Below, piece after piece: positions 849 to 62,199 of a stretch of 64,000 nt of DNA. This stretch comes from a virus. Taxonomy: Duplodnaviria > Heunggongvirae > Uroviricota > Caudoviricetes. The stretch covers positions 1 through 64,000 of IMG/VR virus record IMGVR_UViG_3300033069_001798; one strand, given 5' to 3'. A program made the position numbers and the translations under genes. The notes under the pieces are model-generated. The model saw only the letters and a list, made by a program, of their open reading frames with translations, was not told the origin of the DNA and ran no database searches. Position 1 is the stretch's first letter. Each line of letters starts with the position of its first letter.

Positions 849-888
849 CGCTGTGCACTGGTGCCACAAAATGGGTTACAATTGTTAG

Positions 889-4123: not shown

Positions 4124-4135
4124 AGTAGGCCTACT

Positions 4136-4402: not shown

Positions 4403-4462
4403 ATCGTGAGGCCCACGAGCGCTGTGCACAGCTCGGGCCCAGAGTGGTAAGATGTTAAGAGG

Positions 4463-5155: not shown

Positions 5156-5180
5156 TGTGGGAAGGCGAGCTTCAAGGGGC

Positions 5181-7336: not shown

Positions 7337-7587
7337 TGAACCATTCAAGCGTCAAAATTCTGTCTGGTGATCTCTGCCGCCCAACGAGAGCATGTGCCAA
7401 CAGCAATTTGCAGTACATCAACTTTGCTAGCGCAACGGCATCTGAACGTGTTGTCAAGAGAGATGACGTTCTTGTGTTCATCTGCTGGACAGCATGGCGC
7501 GTGAACGAGCCAGCAAATTACGCTCAGTTCATCACCTCCGACGGAGAAATACTGTCGCTGAGAGCTGGGGAGTTCGAGGTTGTATGA
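7333..7587 (+). CDS. small GDLV-family protein
   Basis: 'LSGDLCRP…FITSDGEILSLRAGEFEVV'. Confidence 0.55.
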   Translation: MMNHSSVKILSGDLCRPTRACANSNLQYINFASATASERVVKRDDVLVFICWTAWRVNEPANYAQFITSDGEILSLRAGEFEVV

Positions 7588-7838
7588 AGACATTTCGGGC
7601 AGGCGATCTTGTTGTCACTGACTTCGCACCGGGCAGTGCCATGTACGTTGTAGTCGATGAAGGATATGGTTACAATCACTTCACAGCGAGTGGAGATGAA
7701 ATTTCAAGTTCTGACGTATCATCTGGTTACGTGTTCTTGGGTTATCATCCTGACAATCTCAGCGTTGTAATGCTGCTCAACAACAGCGACGGAAGGATCG
7801 TTCAACTTTACGATGACGAGATTGAGCAGCTAAGATGA
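7584..7838 (+). CDS. small GDLV-family protein
   Basis: 'MKTFRAGDLVVT…NNSDGRIVQLYDDEIEQL'. Internal ATG of track ORF 7494-7838. Confidence 0.5.
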   Translation: MKTFRAGDLVVTDFAPGSAMYVVVDEGYGYNHFTASGDEISSSDVSSGYVFLGYHPDNLSVVMLLNNSDGRIVQLYDDEIEQLR

Positions 7839-8080
7839 AACCCGTTGTTAAGCCGGGAGCCATTGTTAAGCCCGTTGACGACATCTTCTTTTTTGATGAC
7901 ATAGAGGCACAGGTAGTAGGACGTGAGCTCACGAACCGCGCTGGTTTGTGCGCTGTCGTATATTCACCGAACTGCAATCATGAAGGATGGTGTCCGGAAC
8001 TTCACGTGCTGGGCTTGCTCACTGCTGACGGGCGAATCAAGTTCGTATTTTCATCTCAGGTAAAGATCATTGTTGACTAA
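7835..8080 (+). CDS. small GDLV-family protein
   Basis: 'VKPGAIVKP…GLLTADGRIKFVF'. Confidence 0.5.
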   Translation: MKPVVKPGAIVKPVDDIFFFDDIEAQVVGRELTNRAGLCAVVYSPNCNHEGWCPELHVLGLLTADGRIKFVFSSQVKIIVD

Positions 8081-8087
8081 AGGAACC

Positions 8088-8294
8088 ATGGGTAAAAATC
8101 GATTCAAGACTGGTGATCTTGTCGACATGCAGCATTACCTAAAAGTGTTCAGCAAGGAAGAATACGCCGGTGTGTTCATAGTGGTTGGTTTCTTGGCTGA
8201 CACGCACGTTAAATTGATGATGAGTCATGGTCGAATCATGATGAGCCATGTAGACTACGTAACCCTAGTGCAAAGCGCTGGAGCGGTGGTGTAA
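8088..8294 (+). CDS. small GDLV-family protein
   Basis: 'MGKNRFKTGDLVDM'; AAAGGAA Shine-Dalgarno. Confidence 0.5.
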   Translation: MGKNRFKTGDLVDMQHYLKVFSKEEYAGVFIVVGFLADTHVKLMMSHGRIMMSHVDYVTLVQSAGAVV

Positions 8295-8324
8295 GATGAC
8301 TAAAAACTGTCAGCTGGTGTTACG

Positions 8325-8642
8325 TTGCACATTGAACCTAAAGATGAAGGTATTTGGACTTTTAAGTGGCATGAAGCAAGTCAACAAATGTATTATCTTG
8401 ATGGCATTAAGCGCGGTACACATGTCGTTGTGGGATCAAGCATGATAGAGCCTTGCACGGGTGATATCTTCTGGCCGCTGCTTTCACCATTGGGAAATAT
8501 AATTTGGGTTAAGGCCGACCATTGCCTCGTGGTGCATGTTCAGCGACGGAAGCGATCAGAGCGGGCGATCGCGATCATCGGTCTTCTCACTACGCACGGT
8601 ATAATGTACTTGTATTCCGATCAGATGACGGTCATCGTATGA
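8325..8642 (+). CDS. small family protein (longer, divergent; TTG start per track)
   Basis: 'LLSPLGNIIWV' plus a second C-terminal-like half. Start uncertain. Confidence 0.35.
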   Translation: MHIEPKDEGIWTFKWHEASQQMYYLDGIKRGTHVVVGSSMIEPCTGDIFWPLLSPLGNIIWVKADHCLVVHVQRRKRSERAIAIIGLLTTHGIMYLYSDQMTVIV

Positions 8643-8866
8643 ACGTAGGAGATCTTGTGTGCATGTCACAACATGCTTGGGTCTATGACTTTAATGCCAT
8701 AGAAAATCAGATGAAACTACGGTTTAACGACCCAGCTAGCGGCGTTCACATCGTTGTAGGAACTGCAACGTCGCTGAATCGGGCAAGAATTAAATTCTTG
8801 CCCGTGATGTCGCCAATTGGTGAAATTTACTGGGTCATGACTGCAGATGTTCAGAAAGTAAGCTGA
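8639..8866 (+). CDS. small GDLV-family protein
   Basis: 'MNVGDLVCM…VMSPIGEIYWV'; ATGA overlap. Confidence 0.5.
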   Translation: MNVGDLVCMSQHAWVYDFNAIENQMKLRFNDPASGVHIVVGTATSLNRARIKFLPVMSPIGEIYWVMTADVQKVS

Positions 8867-17988: not shown

Positions 17989-20121
17989 ATGAGTTACAGC
18001 TCAACTGAAGATACGGTAGAAGAGTACGTAAAGAGGTTGTTTTCTACCATGTCATCGAGCAACGTTGATACTGACAAATTGCCAGCCGCTATTAGGTTGC
18101 GCATGCGTCTTTTGAATAATCTCATTCGCGATGGAGCAACGTACTCAGTCTTCAAGAATGAATTCCAGAACCGCTTTGGAAACAAAGACGGCATAGATTC
18201 TTCAATGTTGCCAACGTTGCTGCGCCGCGTTGAGCAAGTCGAAGCAGCAGCAACAGAAAAAGGAAAAGGAGTTGAAGAGTTCGCAGACAGAAAGCTGCGC
18301 CTGTCAACGATAGAAGAGGTGGTGGTGAAGCTCGGCGCTCTTGACAACCAAAGAGATAGAATGAGAGCGCTGGCAAAAATTATCGATTCTATGGGCAAAA
18401 ATGTTTTCTCAAAGCTCATAAAAGTTTTCTTCTACAACGTTCTTGATAATATCGTCAGTGCCAGATCAGAGCTCCAGAAGAAAGAAATCATGTACGATTC
18501 AGAGATGTTTGAATCAATATGGAAGCGCTCTGCAAATGCTTGGATGAAGGAGAATCCTGCTGGTGCTTTTCATGATTTTTTTGATGATGTGATGGCAGAG
18601 TTTCTTCAATTTTCAAAGCTAGATGTTACCAGAACGAAGACAGAAAAAGAGCAGCGGATCGATGAGATCATCAAGATTGTCAGCAGCATATCCGAAGATG
18701 ATTGGGATGCTCTGCTGGTATCACCTGATTACAGGAAAGTTCAATTCAGCGCGCTGACGTCTTATCGAAACGATCTGGGCTCGCTCAAACGATACCTGAG
18801 CGTGGAATCTGACTTTGCTGTACAACGCGACCTTGAGTGCGCAAAAAAGTGCGTCGAAATAATAAAGTCTTGGGAGGATGAGAGCTCGTACGATGATGAA
18901 GCTCTAGATCGCGTGGTAGAGAAGTTGGCAACAGTTGCTAGCAATTTCAAGGAAATGCCACCGAGCACTAATTACGTCTTGAGCCAGTATCTTTACATAG
19001 TTGAACCTGCAGCAGATGTCATCCGAAGGTACCTGTTCGACGGCACCAACAAAGACATCTTTAGAGCAAAGGCTCACAGTCTTGCACGTGGAGGTGGAAA
19101 CCTCGTTGTCGAAGCTTTCGGAGAGCTAGCAAAGTACTACGAGATCGAGAAAAAAGCTCAAGCAGCGTTGAATAATTCAACGTTCAACGCAACTTGGAAC
19201 AGCATAAATGATAGCGTCAAAAAGCTGACCAATTACAAATGGTCGGAAGAAATATTTGAAAAGTACTTCGCAAAGATCGATCCAGTAGCAAAAGTTGACT
19301 ATATGGCATCGTGGTTTGAAGTTATCGGAACTATCAGAAGCGCGCTCAATCCGAATGATGAGACAGCTAAACTAAGAGCAGCTCGTCTTTGGGTGCAATC
19401 AGAAGACAATGAAAAGGCTCGTCTGCTCCAACGCATCAACGATGGCATCGACCGTTACGTTGAAGCTGTCAAAGTGGAGCGAGAAAAGCTACGAAAAAAC
19501 AGCAAGCCAGAAGCTTCACCTGACGATGAATTCGAAGAGTACCTCTTTGCTGATGAACGTCATAGTCAAGTTCCTGATGAACCAGACACTCGTGATGAGA
19601 AAGCACTTTACGATAAGCTAGAAGCTCACTTCGTTGCAAACGAAGCTCTATCAGAGGATGAAGCAAATCTGATCAAGAGGTTGATGGCAGACGGAAAGTA
19701 CAGCACAGTGCTGAAAAAGCCAGACGTTGAGCTTGTGTACAGGGGCATGGCTGTCAATGATGATTACCTTAGACGCGCTCTTGGTTTGGATGATGATGAA
19801 TCTCTTCCTCAGAAAGGTTCAAAAACGGCATCATTCACGTTCACGCCCAGGAATGGTGGAAGCTCGTCATGGTCGTTGCGGCACGAGTCAACGTTTGATT
19901 TCATGAACGGAAGTAAAGATTTCAACGTGCTGCTGATCGCTCGAACTTCTGACAATGACGGATCTTTCGTCAGCGGCCCTGGTGGTCTGTACAAAGTTGG
20001 CAAACTGGGCAAGCACGAAGACGAGCAAGAAGTCGTTGGTCTCGGAGCCATCAAGGTCGCAAAGATCATCTGGGATGAGCGTGGTGAATTCCCTGCGGTT
20101 GAAACTCAAGAGTCTACGTGA
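17989..20121 (+). CDS. hypothetical large acidic protein (710 aa)
   Basis: Long uninterrupted ORF. No motif I recognise. Confidence 0.6.
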   Translation: MSYSSTEDTVEEYVKRLFSTMSSSNVDTDKLPAAIRLRMRLLNNLIRDGATYSVFKNEFQNRFGNKDGIDSSMLPTLLRRVEQVEAAATEKGKGVEEFADRKLRLSTIEEVVVKLGALDNQRDRMRALAKIIDSMGKNVFSKLIKVFFYNVLDNIVSARSELQKKEIMYDSEMFESIWKRSANAWMKENPAGAFHDFFDDVMAEFLQFSKLDVTRTKTEKEQRIDEIIKIVSSISEDDWDALLVSPDYRKVQFSALTSYRNDLGSLKRYLSVESDFAVQRDLECAKKCVEIIKSWEDESSYDDEALDRVVEKLATVASNFKEMPPSTNYVLSQYLYIVEPAADVIRRYLFDGTNKDIFRAKAHSLARGGGNLVVEAFGELAKYYEIEKKAQAALNNSTFNATWNSINDSVKKLTNYKWSEEIFEKYFAKIDPVAKVDYMASWFEVIGTIRSALNPNDETAKLRAARLWVQSEDNEKARLLQRINDGIDRYVEAVKVEREKLRKNSKPEASPDDEFEEYLFADERHSQVPDEPDTRDEKALYDKLEAHFVANEALSEDEANLIKRLMADGKYSTVLKKPDVELVYRGMAVNDDYLRRALGLDDDESLPQKGSKTASFTFTPRNGGSSSWSLRHESTFDFMNGSKDFNVLLIARTSDNDGSFVSGPGGLYKVGKLGKHEDEQEVVGLGAIKVAKIIWDERGEFPAVETQEST

Positions 20122-23161: not shown

Positions 23162-23572
23162 TCACTTCTTGCTAGACGGGTATTTCTTCTTGAAGACGAG
23201 CAGCGTGCCACGAAGCAAGATCAACGCATCATCATGAAGCACTCGAGCCGCTCCTTCTTTGAATGCTGCTATGATCGTGCTCAAGAACATGTAGATTCCA
23301 ACGGTGCAGATGATTCCAACCATTGACATCTTCACCAGCAGGCCCACTAGAACGATGACAACAGAGATGAACATCGTTTCAAGCTTCGCGCTGTAAACTT
23401 CCTTGCTGACGGTCACTGAGTTGCCGTACATATCAGCAAGGAACTGAATCGTGCTGAATGACATCTTCTCGCCGTGCGAGACAGACTCCCAGTCAATGTC
23501 CTCGATCTTTACGTTCTCTTCTTTGTTCAACTCTTCATTGATCATCTTTTTCACTATCCTTGGTGTCTTCAA
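23162..23572 (-). CDS. membrane protein (2-3 TM helices)
   Basis: Hydrophobic segments 'FISVVIVLVGLLV', 'MVGIICTVGIYMFLSTIIAAF'. Lies immediately downstream of GroEL. Confidence 0.45.
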   Translation of the reverse strand: MKTPRIVKKMINEELNKEENVKIEDIDWESVSHGEKMSFSTIQFLADMYGNSVTVSKEVYSAKLETMFISVVIVLVGLLVKMSMVGIICTVGIYMFLSTIIAAFKEGAARVLHDDALILLRGTLLVFKKKYPSSKK

Positions 23573-25160
23573 CTATCACTGCGCCGATAGACAAAAATGT
23601 GATTGCTACTGAAACTGCGTTCTTCAAAGCCGTCCTGGAAACTTTCACTGGATCGATGATGCCATGAGCAAACATGTCAACTTCTCTGTCGCTTGCAGCG
23701 TCGTAACCACGAAACTGGATGTCTGACTTGATCATTCCACTTCGTAGATTGTTGATGACGACTTCATGTGACTTTCCGGCATTCGAAACGATCGTCTGCA
23801 AGGGTGCTAGGATTGATGTCATGACAAGCTTTGCACCAACATCATCTTGAGGCACGTCAACCATCCACGTGGCATTGAAGAATGCAGTTCCGCCGCCAGC
23901 TACGATGCCCTCGGCGACCGCTGCTCGCGTTGCGTTCAGAGCATCTTCGATGCGATACTTCTTCTCAATCATCTCAAGCTCAGTTGAGCCTCCGACCTTG
24001 ATGACAGCAACGCCAGAAGCAAGCCGCGCGATGCGCACCTTCAACTTTGTCACTTCATCAGTTGTTAGCGTCACGTCTTCGAGCTGCGTCCTAAGATTTG
24101 CAACGTGAGCGTCAACAGCGGGCCGAGATGCGCCAGCTCCGACCAACGTTGTCGACTTAGCATCAACGACGACCTTCTTGACAGTACCAAGATCGTTGAG
24201 CTCAAGCTTCTCGATCTTCAATCCAGCAGCTGGCGACACAACTGTCGTACCAGTAAGAACTGCGATATCGTGAAGCAGTTCATCCTTGTGTTTTCCGTAA
24301 CCCGGTGCTTTGACAGCAACGACTGCTAGGTTCGCATTGACGCGGTTGACGACCAGTCCTTGCATCGCTTCACCATCAACATCTTCGGCAATGATGAGCA
24401 GCTTTGACTGGGATCTTACGACTTTCTCAAGCAGAGGAATCAGCTCGCTCAGCGATGATAGTTTCTTGTCAGTGACAAGAACGCGAGCATCATTGTAAGT
24501 GACATTCATTCGTTCTTGGTTGGTGACGAAGTAAGGGCTCAAGTAACCACGCTCGAACTGCATACCTTCGACAGTTTCAAGCGTTGTCTCCATTCCTTTT
24601 GCATCCTCAACGGTGATGATGCCGTCAGATCCGACCTTCTCCATCGCATCAGCGATGAGGTTGCCGATGCGACCGTCGCCGTTCGCAGAGATCGTGCCGA
24701 CCTGAGCGATCTCTTCTTTGGTCGTCAGCTTCTTAGCAGATTTCACAAGGTATTCATCGACTAGCACTCGAGCTCGTTCCATCCCTTCGCACAGCTCTTT
24801 TGCTTCAAACCCTGCTTCAAGGTACTTCAACCCACCCTTGACTAGAGCGTAAGTCAACACCGTTGCTGTCGTTGTGCCATCACCAGCAACCTCGTTCGTC
24901 TGTGATGCTGCCTCCCTGATCAGATCTGCTCCCATCCTTTCAACTGGATCTTTGGGCCTGACTGACTTTGAAACCGTAACGCCGTCCTTGGTGACAACTG
25001 GCGGTCCATCTTTCTTCTGGATGACGACTGTCTTTCCTTTCGGTCCCAGCGTGCATGCAACGCTTTCAGCTGTGCACTCTATTCCTCGATAGAGTCTACG
25101 CCTCGCGTCGTTCTTGAAGAAAACTTTCGTAATGTTGTGTGTCTCGACGTCATTGATCAT
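23535..25160 (-). CDS. groEL: chaperonin GroEL (Cpn60)
   Basis: 'CTLGPKGKTVVI…KDGVTV' and 'AGDGTTTATVL' are signature motifs. The protein is GroEL-like along its full length. Confidence 0.9.
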   Translation of the reverse strand: MINDVETHNITKVFFKNDARRRLYRGIECTAESVACTLGPKGKTVVIQKKDGPPVVTKDGVTVSKSVRPKDPVERMGADLIREAASQTNEVAGDGTTTATVLTYALVKGGLKYLEAGFEAKELCEGMERARVLVDEYLVKSAKKLTTKEEIAQVGTISANGDGRIGNLIADAMEKVGSDGIITVEDAKGMETTLETVEGMQFERGYLSPYFVTNQERMNVTYNDARVLVTDKKLSSLSELIPLLEKVVRSQSKLLIIAEDVDGEAMQGLVVNRVNANLAVVAVKAPGYGKHKDELLHDIAVLTGTTVVSPAAGLKIEKLELNDLGTVKKVVVDAKSTTLVGAGASRPAVDAHVANLRTQLEDVTLTTDEVTKLKVRIARLASGVAVIKVGGSTELEMIEKKYRIEDALNATRAAVAEGIVAGGGTAFFNATWMVDVPQDDVGAKLVMTSILAPLQTIVSNAGKSHEVVINNLRSGMIKSDIQFRGYDAASDREVDMFAHGIIDPVKVSRTALKNAVSVAITFLSIGAVIVEDTKDSEKDDQ

Positions 25161-25505: not shown

Positions 25506-26438
25506 TCATTTAGGTATGTTGAACATCGATGCCATGAGGTCAACGCTAAGATTCTTGTGCTTAGCTTCGACTTCTACGGCGATTGTATCATCCCTAAGCC
25601 CACGGAGCTGACAATCAGGAACATGATGGATGTAGTCGCTATGCTTCCTCCTGTCAATAAATGAACCGTTCAACAATGAAGGCTCAGTGTTTGATATGTG
25701 CTGAAGAGGTATCACACCTTTCGGCCATGTCAACTGTGTTACATTGAACGCTTCGTCAGCAGTTAGCTCGCCGTCGTTGAACGTATGATGGTGCGAATCC
25801 CACACGATCGGCACGCCAGTTTCCTTGTAGACGGGTAGCAAGTCGACGACAGAGTACGCTGACTCATCGTTCTCAAGCGTAAGCCTAGACCGAACAGACT
25901 GTGGCAACGAACGAATGCCATCAACGAGCCGTGAATGACGGTCACCCTTACCACCGTGAATGTTGATTGCTGCGTGCGGCGACCGCGGGAGACCCATGGC
26001 ATCAAAGATCCAGCCATGAAGTGACAACTCGTTGAAAGAATTCTCAACAACGCGGTCAGAATCGGACGATATGACGCAGAACTGACCTGGGTGCGTTGTC
26101 AACCGTATACCACGTGAGATTGCTGCTGTGCCAGCACGCTGCAACTCTGCACGAACCGCAGGATTGTCCCACGTCTTGCGAGGCACTTTATCAGCAAGCG
26201 GGAACAGAGATGACGAAATTCGAAATAGACGAATCCCCGCTGCTGACACCTTGGGTATCATCGCAGCGAGGTTCTTGATGTTGCTGATGTACGTAACACG
26301 GATCTGCTCGTCAGTGTACGCGCCGCGCTGGAACCTTCCCAGCTGCAACGTACGTTCAGACATCTCATTGACGAGAACAGTGTTACCCGTGCGTGGTTGC
26401 ACGTGAGACTTAAGCCAATGGCAGCAAACGCCTAGCAT
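25506..26438 (-). CDS. uvdE: UV damage endonuclease UvdE
   Basis: 'FRISSSLFPLA', 'THPGQFCVISS', 'INIHGGKG', 'RLTLENDESAY' and 'PIVWDSHHH' are colinear with the conserved blocks of UvsE/UVDE. Confidence 0.85.
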   Translation of the reverse strand: MLGVCCHWLKSHVQPRTGNTVLVNEMSERTLQLGRFQRGAYTDEQIRVTYISNIKNLAAMIPKVSAAGIRLFRISSSLFPLADKVPRKTWDNPAVRAELQRAGTAAISRGIRLTTHPGQFCVISSDSDRVVENSFNELSLHGWIFDAMGLPRSPHAAINIHGGKGDRHSRLVDGIRSLPQSVRSRLTLENDESAYSVVDLLPVYKETGVPIVWDSHHHTFNDGELTADEAFNVTQLTWPKGVIPLQHISNTEPSLLNGSFIDRRKHSDYIHHVPDCQLRGLRDDTIAVEVEAKHKNLSVDLMASMFNIPK

Positions 26439-28562: not shown

Positions 28563-29481
28563 TCAAGCGTACTTGCACATCAGCTGCTCACCAAGATCCT
28601 TGAGGAACTGTACACCGTAGTTACCATCACGGCTAGCTTCAAGGTCGGTTTCAAGGAAGCTCGGCAACACTTCGTCAGAGTAGCGTGCAGATGCAATGCC
28701 CCATGCGATCGCAGCGACAGAGTCTGTGTCACCACCCCCAGCTCGCAACTCGAGACATGATACCCGCTAGCGATTTTTCTTCGACAAGCAACGTATGAAC
28801 AGCCCAAGCCGTGTTCCAACCGAGGCCACGATCCCCCGGCTGCTTCGGTCGAGCCTTCACAGGGCCCTCCCAGGGCTTCGAGAAATAATCAAAAGAATCT
28901 AGGTAACGGCTACACCATCCTAGCATGTGATTAAAATCTCGACGATCGTAGAGGGCATAATGCGACATCAATGCAACAGCGATCGAGGAGTTGATGCCAC
29001 CCCACGTGGCATGCGTCGTAGCTGCTTGCAACCCAGCGTAGCGAACGACGGCATCTGGATCTTTGATGACGCCTATGGGAACCGAGCGCATCGCTGCACC
29101 GTTCTTGTCGGAATTTGGTTGAAGCTTCAGCTTCAGCTCATCACCGTTCTTCGAAGACTCTAGTAGCTCTTGCATCGCTCTGCTGTAACCATCGCGTGGA
29201 TCTCTTGCATGAACTTCCCAAAATTTGCCAACAAAATCAACGGCGCTGGGTGATTCGCTGGTGCACAGCAACTCTGCGATCGCAATGCTCTGCTGGGTAT
29301 CATCTGAGTACCAGCCCGGTTTCATCAGCTCGTACGTTGGGTGCTGAACGTAACGATTCATAGAGCCAACAGCTTCAAAAAGCTCGCCATGCTTCTCTTT
29401 ATCGATGAATTCGATGCCCAACGCCAATGCATCTGCTTGCGCAATGCGCAGCAGCATGTTGCTGTTCTTACGTCTCATCAT
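28563..29481 (-). pseudogene. ADP-ribosylglycohydrolase (ARH family) split by a frameshift at a G5 run (or a sequencing error)
   Basis: The 250-aa ORF 28729-29481 has the N-terminal ARH motif 'AQADALALGIE'. The C-terminal ARH motif 'GGDTDSVAAIAWGIA' lies in the next frame (ORF 28563-28748). The frames meet at minus-strand 'GCTGGGGGTGGTGA' (plus strand 28729-28740). Deleting one G restores '…SWGGDTDSVAAIAWG…'. Confidence 0.6.
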
Positions 29482-30052: not shown

Positions 30053-30868
30053 CTACTTCTGTCTTTTTGGACACCAGTAAGTTGTTCGACCGTCAGCGGT
30101 CGCTTTTTTTTCTACTGGGAATCCATGAGGATCAGTGACTTGATTGTACACTGAAAATCTGTCTGATATCCATGATGTGCCATCCGGACCCACAGAATAA
30201 GCCCCACCGAGCTCGTACGACAGGTTCATCATCATTATGATAGCTGATCGTAGGTCAGCAAAGTCTTCGTGGGTTAGCGACGAAACTGGACGATGCGGTG
30301 ATATCTTCGCAGCATACAAAGATTCACACTTCAAGTAATTACCGACGCCAGAGACGCAGCTTTGGTCCATCAGAGCCTCAGCGATCGTTCGATTGCTCTT
30401 GAACATCATGCGCTCGATGAATTCTTCATCATCCGGTGGTGCGTTAAGCATGTCAGGACCTATTGACTTCAGCTTTGAAGCTAGCGCTTCGGCAGAAGAC
30501 GTGAAGCTCAACGTCCCGAATCGACGCTGGTCAATGAACGTCGTTGTCAACTCATCAGACATGATTGACATGACAGCGTGCCCAGCCGTGGGCCGCGTCG
30601 TCCACTTTCCCGTCATCCCGTAGGTGCACATCATGTACCAATCGGGCTCAAGATCTTTCTTGAACGTCCACCATGAGAACTTTCCCTTTACGCGAGCTGC
30701 TTCCATCATGTAGCCATCACGAACAGCAGAGGCGAAATTTTGGTAACCAGCGGGCTCTTTCGAAGAGTAACGACCAGTGTTGTGCAGCTGAACGGCACGA
30801 ATGATCTCACCGCTGAACAGGTTGTTGATCTCTTCGACGCTCAACGTGACTTCAACACCCTCGGGCAT
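30053..30868 (-). CDS. Fpg/Nei-family DNA glycosylase (formamidopyrimidine/endonuclease VIII-like)
   Basis: N-terminal 'MPEGVEV' carries the catalytic Pro2 and Glu3. The H2TH segment is 'GVGNYLKCESLYAAKISPH'. The C-terminus has only one Cys pair, which suggests a zincless finger. Confidence 0.8.
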   Translation of the reverse strand: MPEGVEVTLSVEEINNLFSGEIIRAVQLHNTGRYSSKEPAGYQNFASAVRDGYMMEAARVKGKFSWWTFKKDLEPDWYMMCTYGMTGKWTTRPTAGHAVMSIMSDELTTTFIDQRRFGTLSFTSSAEALASKLKSIGPDMLNAPPDDEEFIERMMFKSNRTIAEALMDQSCVSGVGNYLKCESLYAAKISPHRPVSSLTHEDFADLRSAIIMMMNLSYELGGAYSVGPDGTSWISDRFSVYNQVTDPHGFPVEKKATADGRTTYWCPKRQK

Positions 30869-33169: not shown

Positions 33170-33517
33170 TCAAATTTCTCTCAAGTACCCAAACTTAGCA
33201 TTGATGAGCCCAACAAGCGCTGAATCTGTTTCCTTGAAATCATTGTTGTGCTTGCGGAATAGCTTCGCGTACTTTGAAGATGCATAATCGATGATCTCAC
33301 GTCTGATATTATCAGGCAGAGGTTCATCATTGATCTCTTCTGTCTTTCTGATCCAGAAAACGGCAGCAGTGCGACCATTTGATGCTAGCGACGGCGCCAT
33401 GTGCCTCTTTAGCCGGGCGATGAACTTTGTGTCAAGCTTGAGCTCAGCAATGATAGTTGAGACGTACTCTTTCAGCAGCTGTTGATCGCTCATGTACCCT
33501 CCAAAAACGGTACCCAA
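33170..33517 (-). CDS. hypothetical protein
   Basis: ORF. Confidence 0.45.
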   Translation of the reverse strand: MGTVFGGYMSDQQLLKEYVSTIIAELKLDTKFIARLKRHMAPSLASNGRTAAVFWIRKTEEINDEPLPDNIRREIIDYASSKYAKLFRKHNNDFKETDSALVGLINAKFGYLREI

Positions 33518-34296
33518 AAGCTGTTTGCAGAGCTTTCGTCTAGGTACTTAAACGGCACCCAAGCGTAACCATCATCTCCCCACCAAGTTCCCCAAGAGTT
33601 GCGAACCAACCACAGCTCTCTTCCAAGATCGTAGCCTACGATCACTTGGCAGTGACCTCCAGCGCCGGCCCTAACGGACTTTGGCATCGCAACGGGTGGA
33701 CCGCCGCGGTACGCCATGTAATCTTTATCGACAGTCATGCCAAAGACGATCGGATGGCTTGCTTGCAGCGCAGAGATGATGTAGTTTTTCTGCGCTTGAC
33801 CAGATCCACCGATAGAATAGTAGCTGTCAATTTTGTTGACGTAAGCGTCCCTGTAAGAACCCCAAGACGGTCGAATGAAGACCTTGCTGGTGTCATAAGG
33901 CCACTTTTCTTCTGCACAAGTTCCCAACGATGACAGCGTTCCGAACGCCATGTGAATGTAAGCACCCTCATCGCGATCTTGCATTCGTGACATCAAACGA
34001 GCATTGTAGTAGACGAACATCCTAGACAGGTCTACGAAAGGTTTGCCGTTGCGGATCTGAAGAAACTCGAGAGCCCCAACGACACCGTTGCCCGTACAAC
34101 TTCCTATAGCTCCCTGATCCTCGACCGGTGAGCACCACTGGCGCAGATCTAGGACGCCGTCGACCTCTTGCGGAGCGCTAGCTGGTGATGCAGCTGCGAA
34201 CTTAGAGATATTATCCGCAAAGACGTAGTTCTTGCTTGCGTCATGATCTGGATCTTCGTGGTCGGCTTTCCAGCCGCCTAGCTTTGGTACGTACAT
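33490..34296 (-). CDS. papain-like cysteine peptidase (C1 family)
   Basis: 'CSPVEDQGAIGSCTGNG' holds the Cys25-like residue. 'GGHCQVIVGY' holds the His and 'VRNSWGTWWGDDGY' the Asn. Confidence 0.8.
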   Translation of the reverse strand: MYVPKLGGWKADHEDPDHDASKNYVFADNISKFAAASPASAPQEVDGVLDLRQWCSPVEDQGAIGSCTGNGVVGALEFLQIRNGKPFVDLSRMFVYYNARLMSRMQDRDEGAYIHMAFGTLSSLGTCAEEKWPYDTSKVFIRPSWGSYRDAYVNKIDSYYSIGGSGQAQKNYIISALQASHPIVFGMTVDKDYMAYRGGPPVAMPKSVRAGAGGHCQVIVGYDLGRELWLVRNSWGTWWGDDGYAWVPFKYLDESSANSFWVPFLEGT

Positions 34297-47905: not shown

Positions 47906-48197
47906 CCTTAAATATGACCTTGCGGCCAGACAATTCCGACCAACGTGCAGCCAATGCTCTATCTACCTTTGTGATGACGCGCTTCTTAAGCACAGGATCG
48001 TAAGAATTCAACGCAGGCCTCATCTCAACGCGCATGTTGAGCAGCAACTGCTTCTTTATTGCCGACCATTCGTCAAGAAAACCAGCGTAACGGAAGACAT
48101 CAATGACAACTTGATCGTACTCAGGATCAAGCTCATCGCTGTCTTCATCATCCATGCTGAGAGCTCCAGATTGCCTTGATCGCCTCGATACCTTCAT
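47868..48197 (-). CDS. hypothetical protein with an acidic N-terminus
   Basis: ORF. Confidence 0.4.
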   Translation of the reverse strand: MKVSRRSRQSGALSMDDEDSDELDPEYDQVVIDVFRYAGFLDEWSAIKKQLLLNMRVEMRPALNSYDPVLKKRVITKVDRALAARWSELSGRKVIFKGDEKPTQQKDPT

Positions 48198-48639
48198 GGA
48201 TGACTGACTCCTGGTACCGAACGAGACCCGGCAGCTCTGAAACCTTGAACCACCGAACGTCTGCTACTTCCGAATCTGGATCGCTGGCGTCTGGGTGGTT
48301 GTCGCACGTCTGCACGGCCAAGTAAGTCACAACTGTCTTCTCTTCCTTCTTGTAAGAAGCCAGCGTGTCAGTCAATCGCATCCCGAGCTCAACGTCGATG
48401 CCAGTTTCCTCTTTGGTCTCGCGGATCGCGCACTTCTCGATTGTTTCGCCAGGATTGATGTGACCCTTGGGTACGCCCCAATTTCCCTTCTTGGAAAATT
48501 GCTTCACCAAGAGGATCTCGGTATCAATCCACTGCGGCGCCAACCGGTACGTCAACGTTCCGCAGGACGTCGTCTTAACAATAGACTTCTTCTTGCCGCT
48601 CATGCTCCTATGATACACCAAGCATGGGTAATTGAACAC
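48148..48639 (-). CDS. Nudix hydrolase
   Basis: Nudix box 'GHINPGETIEKCAIRETKEETGI'. Confidence 0.75.
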   Translation of the reverse strand: MFNYPCLVYHRSMSGKKKSIVKTTSCGTLTYRLAPQWIDTEILLVKQFSKKGNWGVPKGHINPGETIEKCAIRETKEETGIDVELGMRLTDTLASYKKEEKTVVTYLAVQTCDNHPDASDPDSEVADVRWFKVSELPGLVRYQESVIHEGIEAIKAIWSSQHG

Positions 48640-48672
48640 TGCATGCTCCGCGAGCTACGATACTTAAGAAGC

Positions 48673-49305
48673 ATGCAAATTGGTCTCATCGCCGCCGCAG
48701 GGAAACCTCTGCACGCAGGTCACTATGGTCTGATACAGATCGCCGCTAGTGAAAACGACATCGTGAAGCTTTTCGTTTCAACCAGCGACCGGAAGCGACC
48801 AGGCGAGCTTCCCATACTTGGCAGCGACATGCTGCGCATCTGGAAAGAGCACCTCGAAGCAATCATGCCAGAGAACGTTGAGATAACGTACGGCGGATCA
48901 CCCATCGCAAACATCTGGAAAGTCTTGGGCGAAGCTAACGAGTCTGGTAACATGGACGACACTTTCACAGTGTATGCAGACCCTGACGACCTTGCCACGA
49001 ACTTCCCAGAAAAATCACTTAATAAGTACGCTGGAAACCTTTGGAACAATAAGAAGATTATTCTAAAGCCCATCCAGAGGACACAGACGGTGGATGTAAG
49101 CGGTACCAAGATGCGTAGCTACTTGGCCGCAGGCGACAAGGCTTCTTTCGTCAAGAACTTGCCTCCTGGCGTCGATGGTGAAGCCATCTGGAACATCCTC
49201 AGCAAGCAGACCACCGAAGCGCTGCTGAAGAGCTGGATAAGCTTGCTTATCGGCTTACGTAAGGGTCCCCAAGGCAGCGCAAGCGAGAAGCGTGGCAAGC
49301 CTTGA
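48673..49305 (+). CDS. cytidylyltransferase-like nucleotidyltransferase (NMNAT/PPAT-like)
   Basis: 'AAGKPLHAGH' is an (H/T)xGH motif and 'VSGTKMRSY' an ISSTxIR-like motif. Internal ATG of track ORF 48295-49305. Transcribed divergently from the Nudix gene. Confidence 0.55.
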   Translation: MQIGLIAAAGKPLHAGHYGLIQIAASENDIVKLFVSTSDRKRPGELPILGSDMLRIWKEHLEAIMPENVEITYGGSPIANIWKVLGEANESGNMDDTFTVYADPDDLATNFPEKSLNKYAGNLWNNKKIILKPIQRTQTVDVSGTKMRSYLAAGDKASFVKNLPPGVDGEAIWNILSKQTTEALLKSWISLLIGLRKGPQGSASEKRGKP

Positions 49306-50642
49306 GACACGATCTCAAACTTGAACGCTTTCCTGAACATGGACCGCGGTACCATGAGGAACCCGTTTCGGTTCACGATGAAGACGCCGTCAACGTGCTC
49401 GAAGACGTTGTCAATGTTGATGGAGTTGAACCACTCGTTGAAGAACTCGCTTGGATCATCGAACGCAGCATCTTTCAACGTTGAGAACAGAAGCTCAAAC
49501 TTCTCGAAGCCAGTGAGGACGCTCTTGTCCCCCGTAGCGCGCTCAACGCGCTTTGCAACGTCGATGAACGTTGGCTTGTCAACCTTGACTTCTTTGTCGT
49601 TCAAGGATATCCTTGTGTCGACTGGCGCTGTGCCATGATCGTGATCGATACCACTGTGATCGTGCTTGAACTTTTGTATCGACTTCAGGATTCCTCTGAA
49701 CGCAATGAACCTATCGCGGCCGATCTCGCCTTTCTCAACGATCATCTCGTAATCGTCTTCAACGAAGACTTTCACGAAAGAGATCATGTTAGCTTCTGAT
49801 TCTGACAAGTCGCCTTTCTCAAAGAAGCCTGGCCTGCGAGCAAGAGCAACAAAGTTCTTGATCTGCGTCATGATCGAGATGAGGCGCTTTCGTGGTTTGG
49901 CAAAAGCAGCTCTTCCCTCTGTACCTGGACGAATCATTGAACCAGCACCGTCCAAAGCTTTCACTTCCCACGAGCGTCCGTCAACAGTGACGATATCGTA
50001 AGGAACTTTTCCACCTTGCATCTGACCGCCGAGGATGAACTCGAGCCATTCTTCGCCCGGACCCATCGTGCGACCAACCTCGTCACCAGAGGATCCAGCT
50101 CCGGCTTTCGCTGAACCAAACGACTTACCAGACTTCTTCACTTCTTTCGGCCACGTGTACCACTTCAATGGCATCACGTCGTCGATCGACATGTAAACCT
50201 TCTTCTTCGGCGGTGGGAGCTGCTTGTCGAAAGATTTCTCTGCCTTTGGTGCTTTTGAACGAACGTAACCACGAAGCTCAGCGTTGTACTCTGAGTACTC
50301 TTGCTCGGCTTTCTTAAGAGCATCTTCAAGCGTCTTTCGTTGCTTCGCAGCTAGCTTTGGATCGTAGGTGTACTGTGGGTTGTCCTTCAACCTCTTCTTC
50401 GCCGTGTCTGGCGTTACGCCCATCTCTTTAGCTTTGGCGAACAGAGCTTCTTTCTTCTTTTGGTTATCATCCCACGCAACAAGATCAGCTTGTGCAGCCT
50501 CGTAACGTTCTTTTGCTGCGACTTCCTGAGCATCGTACTCAGAACCAACTTTAAACTCAGATTCATTGATGAACTTTTTGATCAATGATCGTAGTTGCTG
50601 TTCAACAACTACTGCATTCAGTCTCGCTCTTAGGTTCATCAT
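49119..50642 (-). CDS. hypothetical protein (507 aa) with a Lys/Glu-rich N-terminal coiled coil
   Basis: ORF. Its 3' end overlaps the NMNAT-like gene convergently by 187 nt. Confidence 0.5.
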   Translation of the reverse strand: MMNLRARLNAVVVEQQLRSLIKKFINESEFKVGSEYDAQEVAAKERYEAAQADLVAWDDNQKKKEALFAKAKEMGVTPDTAKKRLKDNPQYTYDPKLAAKQRKTLEDALKKAEQEYSEYNAELRGYVRSKAPKAEKSFDKQLPPPKKKVYMSIDDVMPLKWYTWPKEVKKSGKSFGSAKAGAGSSGDEVGRTMGPGEEWLEFILGGQMQGGKVPYDIVTVDGRSWEVKALDGAGSMIRPGTEGRAAFAKPRKRLISIMTQIKNFVALARRPGFFEKGDLSESEANMISFVKVFVEDDYEMIVEKGEIGRDRFIAFRGILKSIQKFKHDHSGIDHDHGTAPVDTRISLNDKEVKVDKPTFIDVAKRVERATGDKSVLTGFEKFELLFSTLKDAAFDDPSEFFNEWFNSINIDNVFEHVDGVFIVNRNGFLMVPRSMFRKAFKFEIVSQGLPRFSLALPWGPLRKPISKLIQLFSSASVVCLLRMFQMASPSTPGGKFLTKEALSPAAK

Positions 50643-50656: not shown

Positions 50657-52774
50657 TTAGAGACCCACAACAGATTTCACGTAATTGAGCATAACATTTA
50701 CGTTATCACCAAACATCTCAGGACGTTGAGCAGCTTGTTCTTTTACTTCAACTACAAATGCAGACAAGATCTTGTCTGCAATCGCTCGAAGCTTCGATCT
50801 TCTCAGAACTTCGACCAAGTCTTCAAATTTTGCAATGTCTGATGACTTGAAACCCTTGCCAAACATCATAGTAGTTATAGTATCCGGATCGTCAGACACA
50901 AATTCTCTTGAAAGTGTTTTCCAATCCTTGAGTGGTTTCTTGGGATCTTTTCCCCTCTTGGTCTGGACGACTTTGTACAAACCCTTGTCGAAGTCAACAA
51001 CGTAACGTGTACGATCTAGATCATCTTGCGTTGCATCTCTAAACTCTAGCGTTGAAGCAAACCTGTTGATAACGTTCAAAAGGATGTTTCTCACCACGCC
51101 CTTGACGCCAGAATAATCTTTGTGTCCTTTCGTTGGCGATGTTCCAAATCTCGACCATGTAAGATAACTAACGTTGCCAATCATCACGTCAACTTGAACG
51201 TTGACGCCCGAAGACGTGCCGGACAACGGATAGCTGATAGAAACAATGTTTGATCCAACCTTATCAACAGACTCAGCACCAAACATGTCAGATGCATAGC
51301 TGAACAGCTCTTCTCTAGTGCCGTCAAACTCTACAGCAACATCAATATCACCCATGATTGGTTTCTTTCCAGTTGAACCAACGGGTGCTACGTTCTTGCA
51401 ACCCATATCCTGAAGATCTTGGACGAGAGTTGGCCATAGGGCTTTGAAATCTTCGACGGAGATCGGGCGAACGCTATCGAAAGCGTGACCTCCTTCAACT
51501 ATGAATCGTGATTCGCCCAAGTCCATCTTGGGTATACCTTTGCGCCCGTACTTAAAGAGAGATAGGATCTGATGAACGGGAGCAAATGCACCAGTGAACT
51601 TATATGCATTTCCTTTGTAAAAGAAGACAATGCCTTCCATTGCAGCGTTGATGTTATCAACTGAACCAAGGCGGCTCATCTCTTTCTGCAATATCTCCAT
51701 CGCAGCGACGTTACCAGAAGCCTTGATCGCAGAAATTGCTTTGTTAACTTGTGCTTTGATCCTGCTAACTTCTTCATCAGACTTTGCTATCAACGTAGAT
51801 GAAACGCCGTTTAGAACACCGATCGCAAACTCATTGATCGCTGACTCGATGGGAAGCATCATGTTCTTCACCATCACTTCAGATGCTTTCACAAATTCAA
51901 CAGCGGCTGCAGCATCACTTGGCGTCTTTGACATCTTCTTCAGCTGAGGAATTCCAGGAGCGCCTGGTGCTTCAATAGCTCGCTCGATGCATGCTGCTTT
52001 CAGTTCTGGCGACATCTTGTAGTTTGAAATTTCATCGCGCAAGAGCGACCTAAGGTAGTCATAGATTGTTGCGTTATCATCAACACCTGCTGCGGCTTGA
52101 GCAGCTTCGATCTTTTCAATAGCAGACCTTGCGATAGTACCATCTGACAGCTGCTTCAAGTTAAGCAACGAAGGACCACGAATTCGCCAATCTTTCATGC
52201 TCAGAGCTCGTTGCATCTGCTCAATCTTTGACGTAAGCAACGTTATGCCAGAATCATCATCATCTTGCGAAATACTACCATCACTATCAACTTTAAAGAT
52301 TGGCCAACCATGAAAAACTATGTTGTTTGTATCGTAGTTGATCGTATTTGGATCCGGTGCGTATATGATCTCAATAGAGTACCATCGATTACCGCGAGGC
52401 CCAAAAATTTTCTTTCGTGCCGGGGGTGGTAGAGCGGACAGTGAATCATTTAGAACTTTGAATGCTGAGTTGAACGCAAGCTCAACATTTCCTCTACCGA
52501 AGAATTTCTTAGCAAGAGCGCTTGCATCCATACCACCAGTCTTGATGTCAGAGCCGTTCCTGGCCGTCTTCAACTGTTCAGAGTTTACATCGTAAGTAAA
52601 GACAAGGTTCATGCCGTCAAGCTTTTCAGACACCTTTTCAAGCTTTCCTTCAGCCGCGCTTGTGATAACGTCTTTGATTTCACCAAACGTAAGCTCAAGA
52701 TTTTCAGCGAGATGTTGCAGATGCCCGACGGCACCACCTTCATTGACGTAATTCTTTTTCGACGCTCTTAGCAT
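50657..52774 (-). CDS. composite protein: N-terminal KxDG ligase-like motif plus C-terminal Pol-beta-superfamily nucleotidyltransferase motif
   Basis: 'EKLDGMN' resembles nucleotidyltransferase motif I of Rnl2-type ligases. 'VGSTGKKPIMGDIDVAVEFD' is a GS-x9-DxD motif. Confidence 0.5.
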   Translation of the reverse strand: MLRASKKNYVNEGGAVGHLQHLAENLELTFGEIKDVITSAAEGKLEKVSEKLDGMNLVFTYDVNSEQLKTARNGSDIKTGGMDASALAKKFFGRGNVELAFNSAFKVLNDSLSALPPPARKKIFGPRGNRWYSIEIIYAPDPNTINYDTNNIVFHGWPIFKVDSDGSISQDDDDSGITLLTSKIEQMQRALSMKDWRIRGPSLLNLKQLSDGTIARSAIEKIEAAQAAAGVDDNATIYDYLRSLLRDEISNYKMSPELKAACIERAIEAPGAPGIPQLKKMSKTPSDAAAAVEFVKASEVMVKNMMLPIESAINEFAIGVLNGVSSTLIAKSDEEVSRIKAQVNKAISAIKASGNVAAMEILQKEMSRLGSVDNINAAMEGIVFFYKGNAYKFTGAFAPVHQILSLFKYGRKGIPKMDLGESRFIVEGGHAFDSVRPISVEDFKALWPTLVQDLQDMGCKNVAPVGSTGKKPIMGDIDVAVEFDGTREELFSYASDMFGAESVDKVGSNIVSISYPLSGTSSGVNVQVDVMIGNVSYLTWSRFGTSPTKGHKDYSGVKGVVRNILLNVINRFASTLEFRDATQDDLDRTRYVVDFDKGLYKVVQTKRGKDPKKPLKDWKTLSREFVSDDPDTITTMMFGKGFKSSDIAKFEDLVEVLRRSKLRAIADKILSAFVVEVKEQAAQRPEMFGDNVNVMLNYVKSVVGL

Positions 52775-53030
52775 TTTGAAGCTTCTCAGCCTTTCTCTTT
52801 GCAGACGCTAGCTCTCCACGAAGACGTTGCACAAGTCGAGCGTAGTTGGCTCGAGCTTCTGAACCTTTCTTCTGACGATCGCGCCACTTGATGAGGTCTT
52901 CGATCCTGGCTTCAAGATCTCTGATGTGCTTCTTTGACCCGTGCGGCACTCTTGAGCCGTCAGAAACATCAGCCTCTCTAACCTTGCTCTCAACAACGAG
53001 CTTGATGTATTCTTTAAGATCGTCATCCAT
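52740..53030 (-). CDS. hypothetical small charged protein
   Basis: ORF. Confidence 0.4.
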   Translation of the reverse strand: MDDDLKEYIKLVVESKVREADVSDGSRVPHGSKKHIRDLEARIEDLIKWRDRQKKGSEARANYARLVQRLRGELASAKRKAEKLQNAKSVEKELRQ

Positions 53031-60879: not shown

Positions 60880-62199
60880 TCATCTTGATTCATTTGAGAA
60901 ATCTACTAGATCCTGATAAGAATCAACTTGAATTCCAGCTTCACGAAGCAATTTTACACCAGTTGAATTTCTGTACTTTTGCAAGTACACGATTCTTCCA
61001 ACTCGACTGTTAATTAGACTTTTTGCACACATTATGCATGGAGATGTAGTTACGTAAACTGTGGAATTTTCAAGAGATTCAGATGCGTGAGAAATGGCAT
61101 TAATTTCTGCATGAATGCAACCACAAGAACCTGGTGTTAGGGAATCACAGCCATTAAGCCCTCCAGAATTTGATCCATTGTAGCCCAGGCATAGAACGCG
61201 TTCATTATGTTGATCAACAAAAACTGCGCCAACTCGCAATCTGCAACATGTTGATCTTTTTGCAAATGCAACTGCAACATGCATCCAAATAGAATCATAT
61301 GACGATCTACTGAATGTGCCTATGTCATTTTCATAGTATTCATGAATTTTTTCAATAGGTTCAAGATCGCGTTCATAAATCACGCGAAATTCAATGTTCT
61401 TGTTGGAATAAAAAGATCTAGCGGCTTCGATCTTTTTATTCGTATGTTCATTAACGTAGCCCTTAATCTCTTCAACGACCACGATATTAGAGTCATAATT
61501 GATGAAGAGATCAGGATTGTAATAGTGTGCATTACCTTCTTCATCAGACCAAAGAATTTTATCTTTACATCTACCCCATGCTAGAACTGTATTGTCAAAA
61601 TCCAGTTCTTTGAATCTTCGTAGCTCATAGCTAGAATCGTAATGAACTGTTCCAGCCTTTGTTGACTTGTATCTTCCTTTAAGAAAGTTCTTGTTAAAAT
61701 TTTCTGGTTCGTAAGATCTTTTGTAACAATCACGAGAACAATAACGATCATAATGATGTTTCAGATTGCTTTTCACAAAGTTTGAACAATCTTTTCCACT
61801 GCATTGCACTACAATTTTATTTTGTGAATGAAATGCTAGATAACATTCTCTATCACAAAAACAATTTGCATGCGCAACAATTGTTGAACGATAACGAAAA
61901 TTTGTTTTGTTACACCAAGAGCAATTTACTTGAACATGCGTTATAGATTTTTGTTCAGCTTTGTTGTGCAAAGCGCTACATTTTCTTGAACAAAACTTTC
62001 TTCCATTGTCAGCATAACACTTCAAAACATTGAATGCAGAATTACATTGAACGCATTTAATGGTGACTCGTTTGCTTTTCTGGAAGCATGTTTTTGAACA
62101 GTAATCATTTTTTGACTTTTTTTTGCCATGACAAATAGGACACAAATCTATTTCAGATTGAATCATGTTAGCACTATGAAAGGATGACATCGCAAGCAA
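60880..62199 (-). CDS. fusion protein: 4x Cys-rich zinc-finger repeats, a PD-(D/E)xK nuclease-like segment and a dCMP deaminase domain
   Basis: C-terminal 'CIHAEINAI…TSPCIMCAKSLINSRVGRIVY' is a dCMP/cytidine deaminase HAE…PCxxC signature. The middle 'YNPDLFINYDSNIVVVEEIKGY' fits the PD…(D/E)xK pattern. The N-terminus has four repeats of 'CxxC…(Y/F)CSRxC'. The whole gene is AT-rich. Confidence 0.7.
   Translation of the reverse strand: MLAMSSFHSANMIQSEIDLCPICHGKKKSKNDYCSKTCFQKSKRVTIKCVQCNSAFNVLKCYADNGRKFCSRKCSALHNKAEQKSITHVQVNCSWCNKTNFRYRSTIVAHANCFCDRECYLAFHSQNKIVVQCSGKDCSNFVKSNLKHHYDRYCSRDCYKRSYEPENFNKNFLKGRYKSTKAGTVHYDSSYELRRFKELDFDNTVLAWGRCKDKILWSDEEGNAHYYNPDLFINYDSNIVVVEEIKGYVNEHTNKKIEAARSFYSNKNIEFRVIYERDLEPIEKIHEYYENDIGTFSRSSYDSIWMHVAVAFAKRSTCCRLRVGAVFVDQHNERVLCLGYNGSNSGGLNGCDSLTPGSCGCIHAEINAISHASESLENSTVYVTTSPCIMCAKSLINSRVGRIVYLQKYRNSTGVKLLREAGIQVDSYQDLVDFSNESR

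Follow-up and report, generated by a model that had tools for sequence, protein, structure and literature searches.

Enzymes that rework broken nucleic acid ends and then seal them are known in several forms. Bacterial LigD, which combines a polymerase, a phosphoesterase and a ligase and acts in non-homologous end joining (NHEJ), remodels the 3' end, adds nucleotides (often ribonucleotides) and seals within one protein. In the RNA ligase T4 Rnl2, the residues of an E-K-x-H/D-G-x-N motif and R55 are essential. RlaP, encoded beside RNA ligases, extends the 3'-OH of broken RNA by 1-2 nucleotides ahead of ligation (PMC12776372, PMC7824862), and gap filling as well as sealing have been demonstrated for PgVPolX, the PolX-ligase of Phaeocystis globosa virus (PgV) (PMC5537341). 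Here, we analysed a stretch of 64,000 nucleotides from a Caudoviricetes virus (IMG/VR record IMGVR_UViG_3300033069_001798, positions 1 to 64,000; hereafter the window) and found that one of its genes, at 50657-52774 on the minus strand, really joins an RNA-ligase-type domain to a PolX-type nucleotide-adding domain. By analogy, this protein may be compared with pairs of a ligase and a DNA polymerase beta (Pol beta)-type nucleotidyltransferase (NTase), namely RlaP with Rnl or RtcB, the PgV PolX-ligase, African swine fever virus (ASFV) PolX with its ligase, and LigD. Judged by sequence-membership tests, it falls outside Rnl2, PolX and RlaP, and it has an insertion and partners of its own.

The open reading frame (ORF) encodes exactly 705 amino acids (aa). 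An initial annotation, made from the letters of the window, had pointed to a ligase-like EKLDGMN motif near residue 50 and a GS-x9-DxD core near residue 460. Both are present at these places, the spacing within the latter being x8 (S467...D476) and not x9. The protein is laid out as follows.

50657..52774, minus strand: the 705-aa ORF (from translation), with a ligase-like N-module, a short linker and a PolX-like C-module
51515..52774, minus strand: N-module, RNA-ligase-like covalent nucleotidyltransferase domain, aa 1-420 (fold and motifs)
52607..52627, minus strand: motif I EKLDGMN, aa 50-56, with K51 as the predicted AMP-accepting lysine (conservation; T4 Rnl2 EKIHGTN 34-40)
52553..52573, minus strand: LKTARNG, aa 68-74, R72 corresponding to T4 Rnl2 R55 (conservation, alignment)
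52301..52387, minus strand: candidate motif III WYSIEIIY (E135) and IIIa NNIVFHGWP (F154-H155) on adjacent beta strands (model, spacing)
51650..52177, minus strand: all-helical family-specific insertion of ~175 aa, aa 200-375, between motifs IIIa and IV (model)
51590..51637, minus strand: candidate motifs IV and V, EGIVFFYKGNAYKFTG, aa 380-395, a beta hairpin (conservation, model)
50660..51487, minus strand: C-module, Pol-beta-superfamily NTase with PolX-like palm and thumb and a C-terminal helical region, aa ~430-705 (fold)
51323..51379, minus strand: GSTGKKPIMGDIDVAVEFD, aa 466-484, GS loop with K470/K471 and the catalytic D476 and D478 (conservation)
51182..51199, minus strand: VQVDVM, aa 526-531, third catalytic carboxylate D529 (conservation; strand E105-112 of the model)
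51086..51103, minus strand: KGVVRN, aa 558-563, start of the long post-palm helix, candidate counterpart of Pol beta helix N (helix H139-157 of the model)

Could two such short motifs be a coincidence? Pfam, PHROGs, NCBIfam and PDB sequences, searched by single sequence and by profile with the whole protein and with each half, returned nothing significant, and the combination of an RNA-ligase-type with a minimal PolX-type domain is absent from domain libraries. A search of 5.8 billion proteins yielded 504 unannotated metagenomic homologues, the nearest at 96% identity and the full-length orthologues at 38-66%, and local BLAST of the best 120 of the 504 resolved two independent units in the protein. 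When the two halves were modelled separately, as had been proposed as a check, each motif was found in its expected structural element of a high-confidence model; structural homology backs both motifs, which argues against coincidence.

The AlphaFold2 model of the N-module (predicted local distance difference test, pLDDT, 90.3; predicted template modelling score, pTM, 0.85) shows the covalent-nucleotidyltransferase (ligase) fold, with RNA ligases as top structural matches, and a Foldseek comparison with viral models (BFVD) returned the module's own family first and annotated viral RNA ligases next. Motif I reads E-K-x-(D/H)-G-x-N and is followed by an arginine about 20 residues on, so that, on comparison with T4 Rnl2, its attribution to the Rnl2 type with Asn after the Gly was correct. 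The spacing from K51 to R72 is 21, against 20 (K35-R55) in T4 Rnl2. Across 329 diverse N-modules, E50, K51, D53, G54, N56, R72, E135 and H155 as well as E380, G381, V383, F384, Y391, K392, T394 and G395 are conserved to at least 95%, and in 41 close relatives K51, D53 and G54 occur without exception. When the N-module core, with the insertion taken out, was aligned to T4 Rnl2 by MAFFT, the result was reliable around motif I and R72 only; further downstream the alignment wrongly pairs motif III with IIIa, and we therefore relied there on strand order and spacing. On this basis, the conserved E135, F154/H155, E380-G381 and K392 are candidates for ligase motifs III to V, in the expected order and on the expected strands, the candidate motif V being of the form K-x-T. 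The candidate motifs III and IIIa lie on model strands E130-137 and E150-162, and the distance from E135 to F154 is 19, compared with 20 for E99 to F119 of T4 Rnl2.

T4 Rnl2 and trypanosome REL1 (PF09414), as well as the Rnl5 ligases (Naegleria NgrRnl, Deinococcus DraRnl), share with the N-module the motif I signature and the downstream arginine and, as far as its candidate motifs go, the order and spacing of III and IIIa and the subsequent hairpin with EG (motif IV) and a lysine (motif V). In contrast to them, the N-module carries the ~175-aa insertion and a K-x-T motif V, lacks the Rnl2 C-terminal and the Rnl5 N-terminal domains, and is followed after motif V by a PolX-, NMNAT- or nuclease-like module. 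The insertion, with model helices H213-369, is conserved within the family, whereas the equivalent segment of T4 Rnl2 has ~85 aa. Between motif V and the linker there is a single helix (397-409), after which the PolX-like module follows, and not the all-helical C-terminal domain of Rnl2; an OB-like domain of the Rnl5 type was not found before the adenylyltransferase domain. PF09414 gave no match to the protein at E up to 10, and an hhalign comparison of the N-module profile with the PF09414 protein of the window was uninformative (0.1% probability). The latter protein, at 37655-38677, which had been taken for a bona fide Rnl2, does match Pfam RNA_ligase PF09414 (E 1.5e-12).

The model of the C-module (pLDDT 94.4, pTM 0.89) belongs to the Pol beta superfamily. 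G466, K470, G475, D476, D478, A480, Q527, D529 and R562 are invariant in 24 C-modules down to 27% identity, and because of these invariant residues we consider the GS loop and the three-carboxylate site complete; K558, G559 and N563 are at least 90% conserved in the same set. The palm with GS loop, DxD and third Asp is that of a family X polymerase. After D529 the model continues with a helix, a long helix and beta strands, consistent with a PolX-type thumb, and we infer that the KGVVRN helix corresponds to Pol beta helix N. Of the Pol beta palm-thumb fragment 3lqc_B, 159 of 193 residues align with the model, and of ASFV PolX 145 of 176. The structural scores for other superfamily members were 7.8-8.3 for non-canonical poly(A)/U-transferases, up to 7.7 for CD-NTases and 5.8 for CCA enzymes. 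Thus, of the earlier assignment to a Pol-beta-type NTase of the CCA, minimal-NTase or CD-NTase kind, the superfamily holds, by fold and by the full Asp triad; CCA-adding/PolyA_pol membership was supported neither by a PF01743 profile match nor by a head-neck-body architecture, and CD-NTase membership neither by nearest structural likeness nor by an effector context of a cyclic-oligonucleotide-based anti-phage signalling system (CBASS).

Within family X, the minimal ASFV PolX is the closest comparison: it shares the GS loop, the DxD and a third Asp carried by the palm sheet, and its palm, too, leads into a helix and a beta thumb. The C-module begins ~35 residues ahead of the GS loop, and the 8-kDa (dRP lyase) and fingers domains are absent from it, as they are from ASFV PolX. 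It differs from PolX by the GS-x8-DxD spacing, an extra C-terminal helical region of ~75 aa, the fused or neighbouring ligase-like enzyme and the lack of a profile match: DNA_pol_B_palm, DNA_pol_B_thumb and PRK08609 were not found in the protein with Pfam or NCBIfam. An hhalign comparison of the C-module profile with a second PolX-like gene of the window was uninformative (0.2% probability).

43588-44145, minus strand: mini-PolX of 185 aa, the size of ASFV PolX (DNA_pol_B_thumb E 1.6e-5; PolX PRK08609 E 1.7e-5)

RlaP (PF10127; T4 NrdC.11, Pseudomonas RlaP) is likewise a Pol-beta NTase that is genomically coupled to an RNA-ligase-type enzyme in phages. It has no detectable sequence homology to the C-module (no PF10127 match; hhalign against T4 NrdC.11, 1% probability), whose palm and thumb are PolX-like, and it shares an operon with its ligase rather than a polypeptide. 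The PgV PolX-ligase, like the window's protein, is a single viral polypeptide with a PolX-type polymerase and a ligase. In the phage protein, the ligase comes first, is of the RNA-ligase (ATP-type) clade and not LigA-type, and no 8-kDa/dRP-lyase domain is evident; it comes from a phage and not from a giant eukaryotic virus, and the fusion arose independently. LigD has a polymerase of the archaeo-eukaryotic primase type, not a PolX, and a DNA ligase that includes an OB domain, and no Ku partner is seen by the phage gene.

Is the union of the two halves a peculiarity of the window? The N- and C-modules are separable, fused here and encoded by adjacent genes elsewhere. (In the following, P with four digits denotes a homologous protein, L with three digits a viral contig or locus, and CT a cytidylyltransferase-like HxGH domain.) The N-module is 50-67% identical to many stand-alone proteins of 404-450 aa and is also fused to other C-termini. 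The C-module is more variable and likewise occurs as stand-alone proteins of 254-300 aa, including in Lak megaphages. A single polypeptide carries both in the window, in L002/L003, in L010 and in 16 of the 150 best representatives. In L005 they form two adjacent genes. L006, an unrelated ~100-kb phage contig, encodes them close together, separated by a gene of 107 aa, and its N homologue is only 23% identical (hhalign 99.8%, E 1e-27, full length). P0260 and P0272 are triple C-N-CT fusions. Overall, a Pol-beta NTase is fused or close to an RNA-ligase-type gene in the window, L002, L003, L005, L006, L007 and L010, and in 18 of 150 representatives. The two modules are functionally linked, and the N-module is the hub of a network of modules, two further members of which flank the gene.

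52740..53030, minus strand: upstream gene of 96 aa, coiled-coil-like, a conserved partner (fusion, synteny)
49119..50642, minus strand: downstream gene of 507 aa with a GPGE...D...ExK signature, PD-(D/E)xK-like (fusion, motif)

Five proteins (P0020, P0022, P0042, P0043 and P0109) carry the 96-aa partner fused ahead of the N-module, and in L002-L005 and L010-L016 it is syntenic upstream. The 507-aa partner follows the N-module within one polypeptide in P0069, P0071, P0079 and P0083 (41-46% identity, E 1e-101 to 1e-118), in L004 and L011, and in 13 of the top 150 representatives; in L004 it stands where the C-module would be. Its family keeps GPGE (E197), D216 and E226-V-K228 invariant, a weak, motif-level resemblance to PD-(D/E)xK nucleases; since a profile search against the PDB was empty, the putative nuclease assignment is drawn from this motif. 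The 507-aa ORF and a convergent CT-like gene overlap by ~187 nucleotides (window 49119-49305), and as homologues stop near aa 470, the last ~46 residues of the ORF may be read-through over the antisense of the CT-like 3'-end.

The most frequent partner is the CT domain, which in the window is a separate gene beside a NUDIX gene.

48673..49305, plus strand: CT-like gene (HxGH...SGTxxR), NMNAT-like (profile matches, fusion, synteny)
48148..48639, minus strand: NUDIX hydrolase (PF00293 E 5.5e-22)

Profile matches of the CT-like gene (phrog_3462 NMNAT E 2e-6; TIGR01526 E 1.2e-4) indicate a weak resemblance to NMNAT, and in 137 CT sequences conservation reaches at least 95% at P12, at the final His of HxGH and at the Arg of SGTxxR. 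Fusions of the CT domain and the N-module account for 61 of 80 IMG/VR loci (34 CT-N, 27 N-CT) and for 65 of the 150 best representatives, 62 of these being N-CT. CT-N fusions are present in Microcystis phage Mel-JY01 and the huge phage LR756508 (PF01467 E 3.8e-4 and 1.5e-8). The CT-like gene is syntenic in every relative of the window, and in this lineage the NUDIX gene always follows it (L002-L005, L010-L012). The HxGH...SGTxxR gene with its adjoining NUDIX gene recalls the NMNAT-Nudix enzymes (NadM-Nudix, phage NatV), except that the two genes of the window are separate and divergently oriented, that other phages have the HxGH domain joined to the N-module, and that the NMNAT activity is a predicted one. 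The mechanical CT-like ORF opens at a GTG at 48295 and overlaps the opposite-strand NUDIX gene (48295-48672, plus strand); the ATG at 48673 (MQIGLIAAAGKPLHAGH) is likely the true start because homology begins there. The 'cytidyltransferase' of Pectobacterium phage CBB, a stand-alone 179-aa CT protein, was uninformative. On viral contigs of the N-CT clade (L017, L018, L024, L030, L034, L039, L041, L044, L049, L050 and others), the N-CT genes are followed, 0.3-6 kb downstream, by genes for transfer-messenger RNA (tmRNA) and for tRNAs (Asn-GTT, Thr-TGT, Arg-TCT, Met), L039 possibly carrying a permuted tmRNA. No such genes were found in the window's clade or the CT-N clade, and we take this as synteny and not as evidence for the window's protein.

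How might the two halves act together? The most likely reading, to which we give even odds, is that this large-phage protein is a bifunctional enzyme that repairs nucleic-acid ends by filling and sealing (fill-and-seal). The C-module, with its two-metal site (D476, D478, D529) and GSTGKK triphosphate loop, would add one or a few nucleotides to the 3'-OH at a break or gap; K51 of the Rnl2/Rnl5-like adenylyltransferase would be charged to lysyl-AMP, the AMP would be moved from K51 to the 5'-phosphate, and the N-module would seal the nick, while nuclease-, kinase- and NMNAT-like partners may prepare the ends or supply cofactor. These activities, their order and the substrate are what we infer; the analysis itself shows the folds, the conservation of the active-site residues and the linkage by fusion and synteny. 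End-processing partners back this role, namely an AAA_33/Zeta-type kinase in giant fusions and the nuclease-like signature of the 507-aa partner. As substrate, RNA or a duplex ending in a 3' ribonucleotide is favoured by the RNA-ligase clade of the sealing domain and the RlaP precedent, while the PolX resemblance, the repair-gene context and the PgV PolX-ligase precedent favour DNA patch repair. As the dominance of the NMNAT-like partner is explained by neither, an NAD+-linked role of the N-module has to be considered as well.

Several observations weigh against a fill-and-seal role. Motif V is K392-x-T394 in place of the K-x-K (IKCKN) of T4 Rnl2, and the N-module has neither an OB nor another C-terminal ligase domain but carries the helical insertion. 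The C-module is missing altogether in some relatives (L004). By far the commonest partner of the N-module, and that of most of the family, is the NMNAT-like CT domain and not a polymerase, which plain filling and sealing leaves unexplained. Moreover, the mini-PolX and the Rnl2-like ligase give the phage two PolX-like and two ligase-like enzymes, and since L006 has a canonical DNA ligase as well, the role of the protein must be either specialised or redundant.

A possible but unlikely alternative is DNA repair of the base excision repair or NHEJ kind, in which the PolX-like domain would fill short DNA gaps, perhaps with ribonucleotides, the ligase-like domain would seal them, and the PD-(D/E)xK-like protein would make or trim the break; ASFV PolX with its ligase, the PgV PolX-ligase and bacterial LigD would be its models. 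Indeed, the window is rich in DNA-repair genes (UvdE, Fpg/Nei, FEN and mini-PolX), a Pyr_excise gene is found in L004, and the PgV PolX-ligase is a proven viral fusion of the same logic (PMC5537341). However, the protein lacks an OB or DNA-binding domain, and its C-module has neither an 8-kDa/dRP-lyase nor a fingers domain. A mini-PolX and an Rnl2-like ligase beside FEN, the latter ligase also one of the window's repair genes, are already available to the phage, and the NMNAT-like partner would be unexplained unless the ligase used NAD+. The annotated repair and auxiliary genes are:

23535-25160: Cpn60 chaperonin
25506-26438: UvdE
28729-29481: ADP-ribosylglycohydrolase
30053-30868: Fpg/Nei glycosylase
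33490-34296: papain-family C1 peptidase
60880-62199: TnsA-like endonuclease fused to a dCMP deaminase

This set of repair and auxiliary genes is unusually broad for one 64-kb stretch.

It seems improbable that the N-module is not mainly a polynucleotide ligase and instead performs an NAD+-linked adenylyl transfer together with the NMNAT-like enzyme and the Nudix protein, the PolX-like domain being an accessory of one lineage. Examples would be an NAD+-charged enzyme for which a fused NMNAT recycles the NMN, the addition or removal of NAD-type caps at RNA 5' ends, or the restoration of NAD+ against host NAD+-depleting defences. The CT fusion as the dominant architecture in both domain orders, the NMNAT-like character of a CT domain that keeps its core motif residues, the constant adjacency of the CT-like and NUDIX genes in the window's lineage, like split NMNAT-Nudix enzymes, and the ADP-ribosylglycohydrolase gene all speak for such a role. 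Yet it is polynucleotide ligases that have this fold and this motif I signature, the PolX-like NTase, PNK-type kinase and nuclease-like partners belong to nucleic-acid end-processing, and the NMNAT assignment comes from weak profile matches.

The initial annotation had offered an RNA-repair enzyme or a nucleotide-signal synthase. While the former is plausible, it is very improbable that the C-module is a second-messenger synthase (CD-NTase-like) or a template-independent tailing enzyme of the poly(A)/U-transferase type instead of a repair domain: despite the structural scores of both groups, the PolX matches are stronger, ~30 residues longer and include the thumb, CBASS effector or cyclase-type partner genes are not present, the C-module is consistently linked to a ligase-like enzyme, and no PAP-associated or CD-NTase C-terminal helical domain was matched in Pfam. 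That the motifs are coincidental or the domains catalytically dead scaffolds is scarcely conceivable, for despite the empty Pfam, PHROG, NCBIfam and PDB sequence searches and the atypical motif V, both folds were recovered independently and the candidate catalytic residues are invariant or at least 95% conserved.

If its activities are confirmed, the fill-and-seal enzyme would be a single-chain polymerase-ligase repair enzyme of a phage, built from an RNA-ligase-type and a minimal PolX-type domain, and compact enzymes of this kind may serve as molecular-biology reagents. The sealing domain matters more, as a family of ~2,000 clusters whose ligase-like part is missed by current annotation and which has a constant NMNAT-like companion. 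An exhaustive HMMER search of 1.84 billion cluster representatives found 2,079 N-module proteins at E up to 1e-3, 990 of them at E up to 1e-30, and IMG/VR holds at least 578. Among 185,579 cellular genomes scanned with stringent patterns there was one match, on an 89-kb contig of a metagenome-assembled genome, and GenBank phages contributed three records; the family occurs almost only in viruses. Literature searches found no description of it, and the UniProt label of such proteins, seen via BFVD, is 'Cytidyltransferase-like domain-containing protein' only. A census of 103 ORFs neighbouring N-module genes gave T4-type portal, terminase, PhoH-PIN and miscellaneous products, none of which settles the substrate.

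We put forward, as a rather doubtful proposal, that the N-module represents a large, virus-restricted, unannotated clade of ligase-type adenylyltransferases, which with the nearly obligatory NMNAT-like partner may form a self-contained unit that regenerates its cofactor, either an NAD+-charged ligase with NMN-to-NAD+ recycling or an enzyme that would make or use A(5')pp(5')N-type RNA-end linkages. If true, the ligase-NMNAT unit could enable T4-like marine and freshwater phages to mend or modify nucleic acids while their host is depleting NAD+ or cutting tRNA. Clarifying what the pair does could reveal a new phage counter-defence, such as the repair of RNA or DNA while NAD+ is depleted or tRNA cleaved, or a new end-modification chemistry. 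A ligase is reported missing from some T4-like cyanophages, and the N-module family might be this missing ligase. Remote structural matches to the N-module in BFVD include A0A0M6VVW4 (Synechococcus phage S-PM2, 591 aa; E 1e-5) and A0A4Y5JUK8 (Pseudomonas phage PA5oct; E 4e-6), with TMq 0.41-0.44, a model-based hint that 'cytidyltransferase' proteins of T4-like cyanophages may contain a related ligase-like domain. Searches at the sequence level gave no confirmation of this link, and the gene was not found in the first 50 kb of S-PM2.

Some N-modules are part of giant polypeptides of up to ~1,700 aa, which add a Zeta-toxin/AAA_33 P-loop kinase, a ParB_N-like domain, an M23 peptidase or DUF4116 repeats. 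The extra domains lie at:

L066, aa 160-324
L072, aa 99-265
L009, ORF 4471-7227
P0238, aa 61-154
L042, aa ~1250-1300

They recall the 'polyvalent' injected proteins of phages.

The window gave no match to known phages. Its syntenic relatives lie on contigs of 180-357 kb, and it looks like part of a large phage. L002, a relative of 226 kb, encodes a PolyA_pol/CCA-adding-type enzyme and a Thg1-like 3'-5' polymerase (1-621, 19191-19880) less than 10 kb from the orthologue of the window's protein, which points to a heavy investment in tRNA end repair in this lineage. Positions 1-12000 of the window hold ~45 small (70-115 aa) genes on the same (plus) strand, many overlapping their neighbours by a few bases, with hardly any ORF above 120 aa, and look like the early region of a large phage or an array of paralogous small genes. 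Directly behind them lies a vault-like gene.

12034-14775, plus strand: protein of 913 aa with Major Vault Protein shoulder and repeat domains and an SPFH/Band 7 match (MVP_shoulder E 2e-30)

Its local GC content is ~0.55-0.56, compared with ~0.49 elsewhere, a long antisense ORF (11986-14511) overlaps it, and a vault-like protein is unusual for a phage.

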